64,000 nt of DNA from an uncultured Coriobacteriaceae bacterium (GCA_900539345.1 UQBS01000005.1:610-64609), one strand, 5' to 3'. Shown: positions 30,565-36,815, counted from the first letter of the stretch. Numbers and translations are program-made. Notes: generated by a model not told the origin, from the letters alone.

Positions 30565-31287
30565 TTATTCGGGAAAATATTTCCCAGACTGCAGCAGCGT
30601 GCCTACTCCGTCCGATGAGAATACGTGCAGGTGCCGCTCAACTGGGATTTCGCTAGTTACATAGGTCCCCGCGCTTGTAAGCGTAAATGGCGCCCCTGAC
30701 ATAGGGGGCACGAGCGGGAGAGACTGCGACTCGAACGTCGCAGTGCAAAACGCCGCTATGTATGACGCGTCGCCCATATAGTCGCCTATGAATTCTCCGG
30801 CGAAATAGTTCATGTTCGCTGCGTCGTAGTCCTGATTGTCTTTCCATATAAGCTTGTAGGCGCTGCCGTCTCGCCCGAAAGCCATAAACCATATGCCCAC
30901 GGCAATTTCTTCAACCGCTCCCTCAGGATATCCCGCCTGGACCGTTGCCCCGTAAAAATGCCAACGGTCGTCCTCGGAATAGTCGTCGTAGTACCAGTTT
31001 CCCGCAATTGAACACGGGCGGCCCTCGTACATGTCCTGTCCATCGAGCTGGTATGTCCCCTGCGCCTGGCCGGCGTCGGCAGGAAGGGCATACTGCTCGA
31101 CAAATGCGGCGTCATCTGCAGAAATCACGTCGTTGATTTGATACCGGCCGAAAATCTTCTGGAACCGGGCAGCCAGCATATCCCCGTCTGGCTCGTCGGC
31201 ATGGGCCATGGGTACACAGCCAACGCCAGCCCCCACCGCCATCGCGGCTCCTGCCACCTTGACTAGTTCACGACGAGAGATAGCCAT
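30565..31287 (-). CDS. exported hypothetical protein with a twin-arginine (Tat) signal peptide
   Basis: MAISRRELVKVAGAAMAVGAGVGCVPMAHA|DEP... The mature part is rich in Tyr/Asp/Gly with no recognisable domain. GC content is visibly lower than in its neighbours. ATG 31287 preferred over GTG 31296. Confidence 0.65.
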   Translation of the reverse strand: MAISRRELVKVAGAAMAVGAGVGCVPMAHADEPDGDMLAARFQKIFGRYQINDVISADDAAFVEQYALPADAGQAQGTYQLDGQDMYEGRPCSIAGNWYYDDYSEDDRWHFYGATVQAGYPEGAVEEIAVGIWFMAFGRDGSAYKLIWKDNQDYDAANMNYFAGEFIGDYMGDASYIAAFCTATFESQSLPLVPPMSGAPFTLTSAGTYVTSEIPVERHLHVFSSDGVGTLLQSGKYFPE

Positions 31288-31339
31288 GCCAACCACCCTT
31301 CCTATCGTTACCTGTCACAGCAATGATATCAGGGGTGCT

Positions 31340-32119
31340 TTAGTACAGTCCAGTCGTGAGGGCGAAGTCGAGGGCACGGGGGCGGATGCCGGGGTAGTGG
31401 CCGAGCCAGGTTTGGGCAAAGTGGAGTTGGTCGAAACCTGCGGAGAGGCAGGCCTCGTCGGAAGGAAACTCGCAAGCACAGATGTCGGCCAGGCGCAGGG
31501 AGATGAGAGCTCGAGTCCAGGAAAGCACGGACGCGTCCATGGTCTTGATGGCGGCGGCGCAGGCGCACTCGGGACACACCACGCCGCCCTCGCTGATGTC
31601 GAAGGCAACCCTGCCCGCCTGCGCCAGCTCGACTGGCTCGCCACAGCGCACGCAGGTGTCCAGACACGGCCGAAAACCCTGCATGGCGGCCGCCTTGAAG
31701 ACAAAGGCGGCCGTAAGCAGGGGCAATACGGGGGACGGTGCCACCTCAAGGGCCTCCAGCGAGGCTGCAAGCAGGGGCAGCAGGCGCGGGTCGTGGTTGC
31801 CCTCCACCGTGAGCTCGCAGGCACAGTCGAGCGCGGCATCGACAAGCACCGCTCGGTCGTAGTCAGCGGCGACGTTGGCATGCGAGCGCACGAGGCGCGC
31901 CTCGCTCACGATAGGCAGACCCCTCCCCTCGCTCACCAAAAGCTCCACCTCGTTGCCCAGGTTCATGGCGCCGGCCAGCTTGGCAGAAGGTTTGCGCGCA
32001 CCCTTGGCGACGACGCGCAGCTGCCCCGCGCAGTCAGCCAGCAAGGTAACGATGAGGTCGCATTCGGCGAGCTTCGTGCGGCGAAGGACTATGCCGTGTG
32101 CCTTGAACTTGCCCGACAA
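31340..32119 (-). CDS. recO: DNA repair protein RecO
   Basis: FKAHGIVLRRTKLAECDLIVTLLADCAGQLRVVAKGARK (OB fold), Zn-finger CVRCGEP...CPEC. TTG start. Confidence 0.9.
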   Translation of the reverse strand: MSGKFKAHGIVLRRTKLAECDLIVTLLADCAGQLRVVAKGARKPSAKLAGAMNLGNEVELLVSEGRGLPIVSEARLVRSHANVAADYDRAVLVDAALDCACELTVEGNHDPRLLPLLAASLEALEVAPSPVLPLLTAAFVFKAAAMQGFRPCLDTCVRCGEPVELAQAGRVAFDISEGGVVCPECACAAAIKTMDASVLSWTRALISLRLADICACEFPSDEACLSAGFDQLHFAQTWLGHYPGIRPRALDFALTTGLY

Positions 32120-32128
32120 GGAGGCGTC

Positions 32129-33223
32129 CTAGAGGCTCGTGGCCAGGCGGTCGAAGTCGAGCAGAATCTGGCTTGCATGCAGGCACATGAGCTCGACGGC
32201 ACCTGCCTCGAAGAGCTCGACGGCCTCGGCAACGGTGCGGGCGTCGGTGGTGGCACGCACGGCAACGCCGGGCTCGACAGTGGCACACACGAGGCGCACG
32301 TCCTCAGGCGTGGCGCAGCGCTCGGCTCCCGTGCAGGCGACGACGTAGTCGAGGTGCGCGGAAGAGATGGCGTCGACGGCCTGGCAGAGTACCTGCGGGG
32401 TCAGCTGGCCGCACTCGATGGCCACGCCCACCGCAAGAGCGCCGTCGCAGCAGTCGTCATCGTCATGACCGCAGCCGCAGCCACACGCGTCATCATCACA
32501 AGCGTGATCGTGATCATGGCCGCAGGCACAGTCATCGTCGTCGCAGGCGCAGTCGTGATCACGGCCTTGCTCGCATGTGCAGCCCTCGTCATCGCAACCG
32601 CAAGCGCACTCGTGGGTGTGCTTGCTGGCACCCGCGTCGTCGCGGTCGCAATCGTGGTCATGCCCACAGGCACAACCAGCCTCGTCGTCCTCGCAGGTAC
32701 AAGTCTCATCATCGCAGTCACAGCCGCAATCATGGTCATGGCCGCAGGCGCAAGCATCCTCGTCCTCGCACTCTTCGCCGTCGGCGCGGGCGGTGCGAAT
32801 CACGCTGAGCACGGGGTCCATGGCTTCGTCGAACTCGCCTTCGACAAGGGCGGCGGTGTTGGCGGCAAGGCACACCTCGCCCACACCCACCGAGGCGAGC
32901 ATGGCGCACTCAAAACACAGGGCGTCACCGAGCACGCGCCCGTAGGGCCAGCCCAGAAGCGCGGTGACGCTCACGGGAAGACCCTCCTCGCCAAACGACC
33001 AGGCAAGGCGCGGTGCATCCCCCACCCAGGTCGCAAGCGCCTCGTGCCCCGCTCCGGCAGCCTCAAACGCCTGCTGCAGCGTGGCACCCGGGCCCGCAAG
33101 GGGACTGGCGAGCAGCGGGATGAGCCTAGCCGCAAGCTCCTGGCCCAGACCCTCCAGGTCGACCTCTTCGCCTTCGCACAAGCAAGACGCCAAACGCCCC
33201 AGTGTCTCTTCTGCCTGCGACAT
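32129..33223 (-). CDS. DeoC/aldolase-fold homologue lacking the catalytic lysines, with a roughly 110-aa Cys/His/Asp-rich insert
   Basis: Alignment by eye to B. subtilis/E. coli DeoC: VTALLGWPYG ~ VIGFPLGA; EVCLAANT ~ EVDMVINI; GVAIECGQLT ~ KVIIETCLLT; HLDYVVACTG ~ GADFVKTSTG; GVAVRATTDARTVAEAVELFEAGA ~ IGVKASGGVRTKEDVDTMVEAGA. The insert (aa about 148-260) is ...CACGHDHDCGCDCDDETCTCEDDEAGCACGHDHDC...CACGHDHDHACDDDACGCGCGHDDDDCCDG. ATG 33223. Confidence 0.7.
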   Translation of the reverse strand: MSQAEETLGRLASCLCEGEEVDLEGLGQELAARLIPLLASPLAGPGATLQQAFEAAGAGHEALATWVGDAPRLAWSFGEEGLPVSVTALLGWPYGRVLGDALCFECAMLASVGVGEVCLAANTAALVEGEFDEAMDPVLSVIRTARADGEECEDEDACACGHDHDCGCDCDDETCTCEDDEAGCACGHDHDCDRDDAGASKHTHECACGCDDEGCTCEQGRDHDCACDDDDCACGHDHDHACDDDACGCGCGHDDDDCCDGALAVGVAIECGQLTPQVLCQAVDAISSAHLDYVVACTGAERCATPEDVRLVCATVEPGVAVRATTDARTVAEAVELFEAGAVELMCLHASQILLDFDRLATSL

Positions 33224-33362
33224 CTCGATCCCCTTCTCTTTGGTGAGTCGCCGCTTCAGGCGGCGTGCTGTCAAATGGCCCCGGCGTCCCCTGGGCCAAT
33301 ACAAAACGGGCGCCCTGCCGTGGCTGCTTGCCACCTGCAGGACGCCCTGATGTCTCAAAGCC

Positions 33363-35021
33363 TTACGCGCCCTCGCCGTAGCCGAAGCGCTTGATCTGCG
33401 CGGCGTCGCTACGCCAGCCGGGCTTCACCTTGACGTTGAGTTTGAGCATGACCTGGTTGCCGAGCAGGCGCTCCAGGTCGTGGCGGGCCTGCGAGCCGAT
33501 GCGCTTGATCATCTTGCCGCCGGCGCCGATGACGATGCCCTTCTGACCCTCGCGCTCCACGTACACGGTGGCGTTGATGTGCGAGATGTTGGCCTTCTCG
33601 TCATAGCTCGTGGAGTCGACCTCCACGCCCACGGAGTGCGGCACCTCGTCGCGGGTGTTGAGCAGGACCTTCTCGCGGATGAACTCGGCCACCACGACCT
33701 CGGGGGTCATGTCGGTCTGCATGTCCACCGGGAACCACCGCGGACCCTGCGGCAGGTGCGCGGCCACGACCTGCAGGAACCCGTCGACGTTGAAGCCCTC
33801 CTGGGCGCTCACGACGATGGCCTCGTCAAACGGGCAGAACTCGCGCATGTGCTCCACCTGGGCGCGAGCCTGGTCCTGGTCGATGATGTCGGCCTTGGTC
33901 ACCACGAGCACCTTGTAGGCGCGGCTCTCGGCCACGTGCTGGGCCACCCACTCATCTCCGCGACCCGCAGGCTGCGAACCGTCAAGCACCATGGCGACCA
34001 CATCGACATCCTTGAGCGCGTTGAGCGCCGAGATGTTGAGCTCCTCGCCAAGGGCATCCACCGGCTTGTGCAGGCCGGGGGTGTCCACAAGCACGACCTG
34101 CATGTTGGGCTCGTTATACACGGCCGAGATGCGGTGACGCGTGGTCTGCGCGGTGGGCGAGGTAATGAGCAGCTTGTCGCCCACGATTGCGTTGATGAGC
34201 GTGGACTTACCGGCGTTGGGGCGACCGACCAAGCTCACGAAACCGCTCTTGAACGGGCCCTCGTAGGTGGCAGGGTGCATGAAGCGCGTCTCGTCCTCGT
34301 CGTCTTCCTGCGGAGCCTGGGCACCGGCGGCACCCTGGGAGGCAAAGAAGGCGTCGATGAGGGCGGTGCCGGACAGGCCGTCGGGGTTGTCGAAGCCAAC
34401 GACGTCGTCCTCGTCGTCCCAGTCCTCGTCATCGTCGTCGAAGTCCTCGTCGCCCTCAGAAGGCAGGTCCTGCCAAAGAACGGGCTGGCTGGTAGTCGGC
34501 TTGGCGACGGGGCGGGCGTCGGTGCCTTCGGCGGCGTGGTCCACCGTGGGGCCGATGTTGATCTGCTCGGGCGGCACGCCCGTGAAGTCGGCCAGGTAGG
34601 AGCGCTCGAGCGCCTCCATCTCCTCAGCCTCGCGAGTATCCTCGTGGTCGTAGCCCATGAGGTGCAGGCAGCCGTGCGACAGCAAGAGACGCATCTCGTC
34701 GGCCGGATCGTTGCCAAACTCAGGAGCCTGCTTGGCCACAACCGAGGGGCAGATGATGAGGTCGCCCACCATGAAGGGCTCGCCGTCCTCCACGTCGTCG
34801 GGGTCGTCGATGTTGAACGACAGCACGTCGGTGGGCTTGTCGATGCCGCGGTACTCCAGGTTCAGGCGGTGAATCTCGTCGGCGTCGACGAAACTGACCG
34901 AGACCTCGCAAGGCTCGGGGCAACCCTCCCCCTCAAGCACGCACGCCACCAGGCGCTCGATTTCCTCAGCGCTCAGGATATCCTGTTCTACCTCGTCGTT
35001 TATCTCAATGCGCATGTCCAT
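33363..35021 (-). CDS. YbeY (rRNA maturation endoribonuclease) - Era (GTPase) fusion protein
   Basis: A single 552-codon ORF. aa 1-150 are YbeY (...DVLSF..., SHGCLHLMGYDHED zinc motif). aa about 150-256 are an acidic linker (DEDFDDDDEDWDDEDD). aa 257-552 are Era (FVSLVGRPNAGKSTLIN, VDTPG, TKAD, C-terminal KH domain). Confidence 0.9.
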   Translation of the reverse strand: MDMRIEINDEVEQDILSAEEIERLVACVLEGEGCPEPCEVSVSFVDADEIHRLNLEYRGIDKPTDVLSFNIDDPDDVEDGEPFMVGDLIICPSVVAKQAPEFGNDPADEMRLLLSHGCLHLMGYDHEDTREAEEMEALERSYLADFTGVPPEQINIGPTVDHAAEGTDARPVAKPTTSQPVLWQDLPSEGDEDFDDDDEDWDDEDDVVGFDNPDGLSGTALIDAFFASQGAAGAQAPQEDDEDETRFMHPATYEGPFKSGFVSLVGRPNAGKSTLINAIVGDKLLITSPTAQTTRHRISAVYNEPNMQVVLVDTPGLHKPVDALGEELNISALNALKDVDVVAMVLDGSQPAGRGDEWVAQHVAESRAYKVLVVTKADIIDQDQARAQVEHMREFCPFDEAIVVSAQEGFNVDGFLQVVAAHLPQGPRWFPVDMQTDMTPEVVVAEFIREKVLLNTRDEVPHSVGVEVDSTSYDEKANISHINATVYVEREGQKGIVIGAGGKMIKRIGSQARHDLERLLGNQVMLKLNVKVKPGWRSDAAQIKRFGYGEGA

Positions 35022-35151
35022 GCTGTCGCAGCCTTTCTTGTCATACGGCAACTCGGATGTAACACGGGACCACCGCGGCGCAGCAGGCAAGGGCGAGGCG
35101 CGCAATGCACAGCCTCTTGCCCGATGCGGCCGCAGCGGCCCCGCAGGTTTC

Positions 35152-36210
35152 TTATTCCGTGGCTCCCTGGTAGCCGTTGGGGTTCATGCTCTGCCACTTC
35201 CAGGAGTGGGCACACATGTCGTCGATGTCGTACTGGGCCTCCCAGCCCATGAGCTCCTTGGCCTTCGAGGCGTCACAGTAGGTCTCGGCGATATCCCCGT
35301 CACGACGCAGGCAAATCTCGTAGGGCAGTTCCTTGCCACAGGCACGCTCAAAGGCATGGATGACGTCAAGCACGCTGTAGCCGTGGCCCGTGCCCAGGTT
35401 GAACACATGCACGCCGTGCTTGCCGCGCATGTAGTTGAGGGCGGACACATGGCCACGTGCCAGGTCGACGACGTGGATGTAGTCGCGCACGCCGGTGCCG
35501 TCGGGCGTGGGGTAGTCGTCACCGAAGACGTTGATGTGGTCGAGCTGACCCACGGCGACCTTGGCCACGTAGGGCACGAGGTTGTTCGGGATGCCCTTGG
35601 GATCCTCGCCGATGAGACCGCTCTCGTGGGCGCCGATCGGGTTGAAGTAACGAAGGAGCATGACGTTCCAACGCTCGTCGGCCGTGTAAAGGTCGCGCAG
35701 CATCTGCTCGTTCATCGTCTTGGTACGACCGTAAGGGTTCGTGGCCGGCTTGAGCTCGGAATCCTCGCGCACGGGCACATGGTCGGGCTGGCCATAGACG
35801 GTGGCCGAAGAGGAGAACACGATGTCGTACACGCCGTGGTCACGAAGGGCGCGTGCGAGCTCGAGCGTGCCGCCCAGGTTGTTCTGGTAGTACTCGATGG
35901 GCTTGTGCACCGACTCGCCCACCGCCTTGTACGCGGCGAAGTGGATGGCGCCGCAGATGGGCTGCTCGTCGAAGATGCGGTCGAGAAGCGCCCCGTCCTT
36001 CACATCGCCCTGGTAGAAGGCACGAACCTTCTTGCCCGTGATGCGCTCGACGCGCTTGAGGGCGACCTCGCTGGCGTTGGACAGGTCGTCGATCACGACG
36101 ACGTCATAGCCAGCGTTGAGCAGCTCGACGCAGGTGTGGCTGCCGATGAAGCCGGCACCGCCCGTGACAAGGATGCAAGGCTTTTCGGACTCAGTTACCG
36201 TATCGGTCAT
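35152..36210 (-). CDS. galE: UDP-glucose 4-epimerase
   Basis: ILVTGGAGFIGSH, YGRTK (YxxxK), C-terminal ...WKWQSMNPNGY typical of GalE. ATG 36210 with a GAAAGGA RBS. Confidence 0.9.
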   Translation of the reverse strand: MTDTVTESEKPCILVTGGAGFIGSHTCVELLNAGYDVVVIDDLSNASEVALKRVERITGKKVRAFYQGDVKDGALLDRIFDEQPICGAIHFAAYKAVGESVHKPIEYYQNNLGGTLELARALRDHGVYDIVFSSSATVYGQPDHVPVREDSELKPATNPYGRTKTMNEQMLRDLYTADERWNVMLLRYFNPIGAHESGLIGEDPKGIPNNLVPYVAKVAVGQLDHINVFGDDYPTPDGTGVRDYIHVVDLARGHVSALNYMRGKHGVHVFNLGTGHGYSVLDVIHAFERACGKELPYEICLRRDGDIAETYCDASKAKELMGWEAQYDIDDMCAHSWKWQSMNPNGYQGATE

Positions 36211-36227
36211 ACATGTTCCTTTCTCAA

Positions 36228-36815
36228 TCAAATACGCTTCCTGGTACAACCCCTTGGGCCATGAGCGGCCCTCTTTGAACGTGAACGTATGCGCGCAACG
36301 GCGAGGCCACAAGGGCCGTGGACGCAGGTTCGCCCGAGTACGACCAGCCGACCCGGATGCTCGTCGGCCTTGGTCTTGACGGGCGTTGCATGCTCCACAA
36401 GAGCCGCCACCTCGTCCATGGTACGCCGCAGATGTTTCTTTTTAAGCCTGCATTCCCAGACAACAACAACTGTCCAGCCGGCATCGACGAGCTCGGTTGA
36501 ATCACGTGCGTCCCTGGCCTGGTTTCGGGCAAACTTCGCAGACCAGAACTCGACGTTGGACGACGGTGTGCTGGGATGGCAGTAGGGACACCGGTGCCAA
36601 AAGCAGCCGTGCACGAAGATTGCCACGCGCTTGCCCGGATAGGCTACATCAGGCTTGCCGGGGGCCTTCTTCCACTGCAGGCGATACCCGCTGAGACCGC
36701 GTTTGCGCAGGTAGGTGCGCACCACAATCTCAGGCTTCGTGTCGCGGCTGCGGTTGCCCTGCATCGAGTGACGCACGGCAAGACTCGTCGCAGCAGGTAC
36801 GGCGGGTGAAGGCAT
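36228..36815 (-). CDS. vsr: very-short-patch repair endonuclease (T:G mismatch, Vsr)
   Basis: RSRDTKPEIVVRTYL, GKPDVAYPGKRVAIFVHGCFWHRCPYC, FWSAKFARNQARD, GWTVVVVWECRL. Basic C-terminal extension of about 45 aa. Confidence 0.85.
   Translation of the reverse strand: MPSPAVPAATSLAVRHSMQGNRSRDTKPEIVVRTYLRKRGLSGYRLQWKKAPGKPDVAYPGKRVAIFVHGCFWHRCPYCHPSTPSSNVEFWSAKFARNQARDARDSTELVDAGWTVVVVWECRLKKKHLRRTMDEVAALVEHATPVKTKADEHPGRLVVLGRTCVHGPCGLAVARIRSRSKRAAHGPRGCTRKRI

Follow-up and report, generated by a model that had tools for sequence, protein, structure and literature searches.

Proteins in which YbeY is joined to the GTPase Era have been catalogued in InterPro from several Clostridia, some Selenomonadales and Thermoleophilum album, and these fusions have been used to argue that the two proteins are partners (Gruffaz & Smirnov 2023, PMC10582724). 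A joint role of Era and YbeY in the installation of uS11 and in platform closure has been proposed, and in Terrabacteria their genes are described as part of a phoH-ybeY-dgkA-era-recO synteny (PMC10582724). Physical association has been reported for the separate proteins as well. In Escherichia coli, YbeY binds both Era and uS11, as observed by bacterial two-hybrid and co-immunoprecipitation (PMC5101352). In human mitochondria, the corresponding binding by YBEY was detected by FLIM-FRET, and YBEY works there with the highly acidic partner p32 (PMC7515705). A 2026 preprint (10.64898/2026.08.26.747345) reports that the zinc site of YbeY converts Asn119 of uS11 to isoaspartate, and ascribes to a failure of platform closure the defects in 16S 3'-end processing that ybeY mutants show.

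Here we analyse a YbeY-Era fusion encoded within a 64,000-nucleotide stretch of DNA (hereafter the window) from an uncultured Coriobacteriaceae bacterium. The order of its parts, with YbeY at the N terminus and the Era GTPase and KH domains at the C terminus, is the same as in the published fusions, and the taxa given in that work do not include the class Coriobacteriia (PMC10582724). The architecture is not new, and the window provides a new example of it in Coriobacteriia. The first, sequence-only reading of this DNA took the fusion as support for a YbeY-Era partnership. This proposal is reasonable, although both the argument and the architecture had already been published (PMC10582724), and the window fusion therefore strengthens the argument rather than creating it.

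YbeY and Era in one reading frame

The fusion gene, ybeY~era, occupies positions 33363..35021 on the minus strand. Translation of this interval yields a single ORF of 552 codons plus a stop, with zero internal stops, that begins with an ATG at 35021 and ends with a stop codon at 33363-33365. The predicted product has a mass of 60.5 kDa and a pI of 4.3. All fused orthologues share the same MDMRIEIND start, which supports the choice of the window ATG, and an SD-like element (AAAGG) is located 10 nt upstream of this codon. The uninterrupted 552-codon frame recognized in the sequence-only reading is thus confirmed by translation, and its assignment of a complete YbeY and a complete Era agrees with profile searches in which the YbeY and Era matches each exceed the curated threshold.

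The YbeY domain (aa 1-146, 34584..35021, minus strand) matches Pfam PF02130 at aa 18-144 (131 bits, cutoff 25, profile positions 8-127 of 129) and NCBIfam TIGR00043 at aa 16-146 (146 bits, cutoff 45, model positions 9-142 of 146). The zinc-binding motif HGCLHLMGYDH was located in the translation at aa 116-126 (34644..34676, minus strand), and it fits the three-histidine zinc motif HGxxHxxGxDH described for E. coli YbeY (preprint 10.64898/2026.08.26.747345). Era proper, comprising the GTPase and KH domains (aa 257-552, 33366..34253, minus strand), matches the Era equivalog NF000908 from end to end (aa 257-548, model positions 1-291 of 291, 343 bits, cutoff 237), as well as TIGR00436 (263 bits, cutoff 116), Pfam MMR_HSR1 at aa 262-376 and Pfam PF07650 KH_2 at aa 459-537 (68.7 bits). 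The G1-G5 set includes G1 (GRPNAGKS, aa 266-273), a TAQTTR motif, G3 (DTPG, aa 313-316), G4 (TKAD, aa 375-378, a variant of NKxD) and G5 (SAQ, aa 405-407), and the KH GxxG loop is found in GAGGKMIKRIG at aa 499-509. Both G1 and G3 are invariant across an alignment of 54 sequences.

A PDB sequence search identified 1xm5 and 1xax as the solved structures nearest to the YbeY part and Era chain 9jkp_B (E = 3.5e-79) as the best solved relative of the Era part; the same search found no solved structure of a fused YbeY-Era protein. The AF2 model computed from the 54-sequence alignment has confidently predicted YbeY (aa 1-159) and Era (aa 250-545) domains, with pLDDT values of about 90 or more in the YbeY domain except for one loop. 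The pTM of the model is 0.57, as expected for two domains that lack a fixed mutual orientation.

Gene order in relatives and the origin of the linker

We compared fused loci (L001-L006 and L010) with unfused loci (L007-L009 and L011). The latter are the closest unfused relatives, with 75-82% identity to the window over the Era part and 53-65% over the YbeY part, and they carry the gene order galE-phoH-ybeY-dgkA-era-deoC-like-recO, except that L011 is without the deoC-like gene. Their ybeY genes encode 196-213 aa and their era genes 329-383 aa. The ORF between the two encodes a small membrane protein of 124-128 aa that matches prokaryotic diacylglycerol kinase (PF01219, 1e-32). PhoH (PF02562, 1.8e-89) is encoded on the upstream side of ybeY. 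These loci conform to the earlier statement that ybeY and era are usually separate genes of one operon.

In the fused clade, the order is galE-ybeY~era. The galE-like epimerase gene of the window (35152..36312 as the longest ORF, minus strand) has Pfam matches to Epimerase and GDP_Man_Dehyd on 35155..36210, is syntenic by tblastn, and adjoins the fusion gene with no phoH in the interval 35022..35151. Both phoH (ybeZ) and dgkA are absent at every fused locus, and tblastn found no match to either across the 64-kb window. On the downstream side, recO (31340..32119, minus strand, RecO_N and RecO_C matches) is syntenic in all related loci. Scanning of positions 31000-36600 returned one promoter-like match, at chance level and far from the fusion near the recO 3' end (31323-31352), and no terminator-like site, in a scan that is uninformative for a high-GC organism.

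This comparison of living relatives indicates that the fusion accompanied deletion of the intervening dgkA gene. In such a scenario, dgkA would have disappeared from an ancestral galE-phoH-ybeY-dgkA-era locus, and with it the stop codon of ybeY and the start of era, such that the ybeY frame then ran into a pre-existing acidic N-terminal extension of Era. The phoH gene would likewise have been lost from the locus.

The segment between the two domains (aa 147-256, nt 34254..34583, minus strand) can be compared with this scenario residue by residue. It contains 30 D+E versus 3 K+R, and its acidity is concentrated in aa 189-256, where 25 of the 68 residues are D+E and one is K+R. AF2 assigns pLDDT values below 50 to aa 160-209 and 230-242. 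The linker had previously been described as highly acidic and about 105 aa long; the acidity holds, whereas the measured length is 110 aa.

Three portions of the linker can be distinguished. The first (aa 147-172, 34506..34583, minus strand), which includes the sequence GPTVDHAAEG, is a YbeY C-terminal tail recognized by homology to the 3' ends of stand-alone ybeY genes, and it matches those of L007, L008, L009 and L011 to about 5 codons before their stops. For example, the stand-alone YbeY of L008 aligns up to window aa 171, within five residues of its own stop. The second portion, AKPTTSQPVLWQDLPS (aa 173-188, 34458..34505, minus strand), is specific to the junction. It is conserved in most fused orthologues and absent from one (P0007), and blastn and tblastx found no counterpart of it in the ybeY-dgkA-era regions of the four unfused loci. 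The third portion (aa 189-256, 34254..34457, minus strand) has its counterpart in the N-terminal extension of Era proteins that are not fused, both those of L007, L008 and L009 and those of the database representatives P0013-P0032; for L008, the alignment begins at residue 42 of the stand-alone Era, opposite window aa 209. The same boundaries are apparent in the linker DNA, where blastn and tblastx matched aa 151-172 to the 3' end of ybeY and aa ~189-260 to the 5' extension of era. Comparison of this DNA with the four unfused loci by the same two programs revealed no remnant of dgkA at the junction.

These alignments indicate that the linker consists of a YbeY tail, 16 junction-specific residues and a pre-existing acidic extension of Era. 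The notion of a neutral spacer born with the fusion does not hold, because the C-terminal two thirds of the linker correspond to an Era extension that is present in unfused relatives.

The extension is a family trait. Stand-alone Era proteins of this Coriobacteriales family (P0013-P0032) are 350-450 aa in length, and they owe this length to a variable acidic N-terminal extension; the stand-alone era loci examined include L007 5041..6144 and L008 5052..6203. Embedded in the extension is a conserved motif, which in the window reads GLSGTALIDAFFA (aa 215-227, 34341..34379, minus strand). Its consensus, GLSGxALIDAFFA, is nearly invariant in 29 long-N-terminus proteins, fused and unfused, and is flanked by variable acidic sequence of low complexity. 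AF2 predicts a helix at aa 218-230 (pLDDT ~64) between segments with pLDDT below 50. Motif-like strings were also seen in two distant fusions, with LVEQFF and LISEFF present in P0042 and P0207.

Two other ORFs near the fusion gene were noted. A DeoC/LacD-aldolase-like gene (32129..33358, minus strand) lies between the fusion gene and recO. It carries an insert of ~130 aa with an extremely high content of Cys, His and Asp and with repeated CACGHDHD / CxC units, and the length of this insert varies between MAGs. The L007 orthologue, with a short version of the insert, matches DeoC (PF01791, 1.6e-9), and the window copy gave no match to a Pfam family. On inspection by eye, the window copy has YVVACTGA and VRATTDAR where L007 and L008 have FVKTSTGF and VKAAGGIR, such that the catalytic lysines appear to be lost; the product is possibly a metal-binding pseudo-enzyme. 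The second ORF (36228..36815, minus strand), located just upstream of galE, contains DTKPEIVVRTYLRKRGLSGYRLQWK and, further on, VAIFVHGCFWHRCPYC, and by eye it resembles a very-short-patch-repair (Vsr) endonuclease.

Conservation of the fused frame and its products

A genome scan that sampled one genome per GTDB species recovered a 99%-identical fusion in five human-gut Coriobacteriales/Coriobacteriaceae MAGs from separate projects (UMGS1780, HRGM, two Hadza bins and MGYG-HGUT-00585) and a 90%-identical fusion in two more genomes, giving at least seven assemblies altogether. Additional clusters of fused orthologues, down to 80% identity, are present in the protein database, and one of them has 353 member sequences. 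In a neighbour-joining tree, the fused Era domains of the window clade form one group nested among unfused Era domains, which is consistent with a single fusion event.

The linker evolves in the manner of coding sequence. Among fused orthologues, its length differs by whole codons in every case, and Nei-Gojobori comparison of four orthologous genes yields dN/dS values of 0.09-0.33 for the linker versus 0.01-0.11 for the two domains. For the former Era extension (aa 189-256) the corresponding values between fused orthologues are 0.07-0.35. The GC3 of the linker, 0.87, is similar to that of the flanking domains. Together, the dN/dS values, the in-frame indels and the GC3 argue that the linker is translated in the fusion frame and is under purifying selection. 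These sequence comparisons indicate a heritable fusion that is conserved in orthologues, and we consider it very likely that ybeY~era is genuine and vertically inherited in a clade of uncultured human-gut Coriobacteriales.

Two contigs bear a Coriobacteriales-type galE-ybeY~era-recO locus with 90% protein identity to the window under record titles that name other organisms, namely Acutalibacteraceae (L006, CAVEWV010000007.1) and Alistipes onderdonkii (L010, CAVJGP010000007.1). These are probably mislabelled or contaminated bins.

A gene of this kind might also yield two products, either because Era is made from an internal start in the linker (Met248 or another codon) in addition to the full-length fusion, or because the linker is cleaved after translation. 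The Met248 codon (34278..34280, minus strand) is indeed an ATG, at nt 34280 as first noted, and it is present in all fused orthologues, 9 residues ahead of the start of the Era profile. The predicted disorder of the linker may leave it accessible to proteases, and one NCBI member of an Eggerthellaceae fusion cluster is annotated as a 313-aa Era. However, the only SD-like element near Met248, GAGGA, lies 13 nt upstream of it, a spacing at the edge of the useful range. Moreover, the equivalent position in unfused relatives falls within the translated Era extension; most of them have M, I, V or L there, several have Ile, Val or Leu, and L011 is without a counterpart, which is not the pattern of a conserved start. 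Unfused Era retains the GLSGxALIDAFFA motif, which precedes Met248 in the sequence, and this implies that the Era of these relatives is translated from a start far upstream; Met248 was for these reasons rejected as the ancestral Era start. Purifying selection over the whole linker in the fusion frame further argues that the read-through product matters. Accordingly, of the earlier suggestion that Met248 permits separate Era synthesis, the codon itself stands, whereas its spacing and its variability make the case for initiation there weak, and we regard the production of two products by either route as unlikely.

An origin of the open frame in faulty sequencing or assembly (a frameshift or stop overlooked in the linker, which is GC-rich and of low complexity, or two loci joined in a chimeric assembly) is exceedingly improbable and can be dismissed: although every source is a short-read metagenome assembly, the linker is repetitive with GAC/GAG runs, and a few cluster representatives are aberrant (internal deletions in P0006 and P0010, a divergent Era half in P0012), the frame recurs in independent assemblies from different cohorts at 99%, 90%, 86% and 80% identity, indels are always multiples of three, the linker dN/dS is well below 1, and every fused locus is without dgkA and phoH and has galE and recO flanks alike. 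The same evidence answers the concern of the first reading that a frameshift or stop might be hidden in the linker.

Possible function and comparison with known systems

We consider it highly probable that the single, full-length polypeptide is a real bifunctional assembly factor. Our confidence in any detail of the mechanism outlined here is much lower. Judging from the separate proteins, the KH domain of Era would bind the 3' minor domain of 16S rRNA at the nascent 30S platform, and YbeY would act there too, on uS11 and on the 16S 3' end. A tether between them would give equimolar synthesis, presumably in a fixed 1:1 complex, and would bring YbeY, possibly loaded with uS11, to the platform wherever Era docks. 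The long flexible linker (~110 residues, predicted disordered) would avoid steric clash on the subunit. Views of the molecular activity of YbeY are in flux, with endoribonuclease and uS11 isoaspartylase both proposed, and the tether might deliver either chemistry. The uS11 gene, which was sought for its Asn kink residue, is absent from the window and from the compared loci.

The acidic, motif-bearing segment of the linker may conceivably be a functional module in its own right, serving in docking or as a chaperone by binding, for example, YbeY or the very basic uS11, although we hold this to be a doubtful proposition. The acidic p32 partner of mitochondrial YBEY would be an analogue of such a role. 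If docking is the correct interpretation, GLSGxALIDAFFA would have linked Era to YbeY non-covalently already in unfused ancestors, and fusion would then have been easily tolerated after the loss of dgkA and phoH/YbeZ. The fused clade would in that case represent a natural experiment on how YbeY functions when no YbeZ is encoded next to it.

Fusions outside the window clade were collected by an exhaustive search of 1.84 billion cluster representatives (50% identity), from which the best 150 matches were examined. Among these, 34 consist of YbeY followed by Era in one protein, with 35-43% identity, and named examples include one Christensenellaceae protein and one Eggerthellaceae cluster. The 110-aa linker of the window fusion compares with linkers of 6-87 aa in 37 other fusions outside the window clade, and is the longest among the fusions sampled. 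It also differs in its source, in that most of it corresponds to a lineage-specific Era extension with GLSGxALIDAFFA. The genomic setting is likewise distinct. In the Eggerthellaceae-type fusion P0056, phoH is retained immediately upstream of the fused gene, in the order phoH-ybeY~era-PASTA-recO-rpsO-pnp, whereas the locus of the window clade is without phoH.

In the neighbour-joining tree, the Era domains of P0042 and of P0054/P0056 belong to clades apart from that of the window, which implies at least three independent fusions in the sample. The window clade and the Eggerthellaceae-named P0054/P0056 clade thus add independent examples from Coriobacteriia, and P0042 represents a third, unassigned fusion lineage among the same Era relatives. 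Annotation does not always reflect this architecture. The P0054 cluster of 480-aa Eggerthellaceae fusions has an NCBI member, MBR5259526.1, described as a 313-aa 'GTPase Era', and the 518-aa fusion P0207 is annotated simply as 'GTPase Era'. Fusions named in this way may be under-counted in surveys based on annotation.

What is particular to the window fusion is an origin that can be reconstructed, in which phoH-ybeY-dgkA-era appears to have been collapsed by gene loss, together with the longest sampled linker and a motif-bearing Era extension as the source of that linker. How fused Era proteins work was listed as an open question in the 2023 review of Era (PMC10582724), and these features offer concrete constructs for its study.

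The closest arrangement to that of the window is the Terrabacteria-type cluster of L007, L008, L009 and L011. Gene order and flanks (galE on one side, the deoC-like gene and recO on the other) are alike, whereas the genes of that cluster are separate and the window has neither dgkA nor phoH and carries ybeY and era in one reading frame. The YbeY, Era and uS11 proteins of E. coli and S. aureus, and the human mitochondrial YBEY-p32-uS11m system with ERAL1, exhibit the physical and genetic association that a fusion would hard-wire, but they are separate polypeptides. Likening the acidic linker to a p32 supplied in cis is speculation by analogy with the mitochondrial system. Finally, the fusion of Era to RNase III in some Rickettsia (PMC10582724) likewise joins Era to the product of a neighbouring gene that acts on rRNA. 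It differs from the fusion described here in its partner, RNase III, and in its context, an rnc-era operon.
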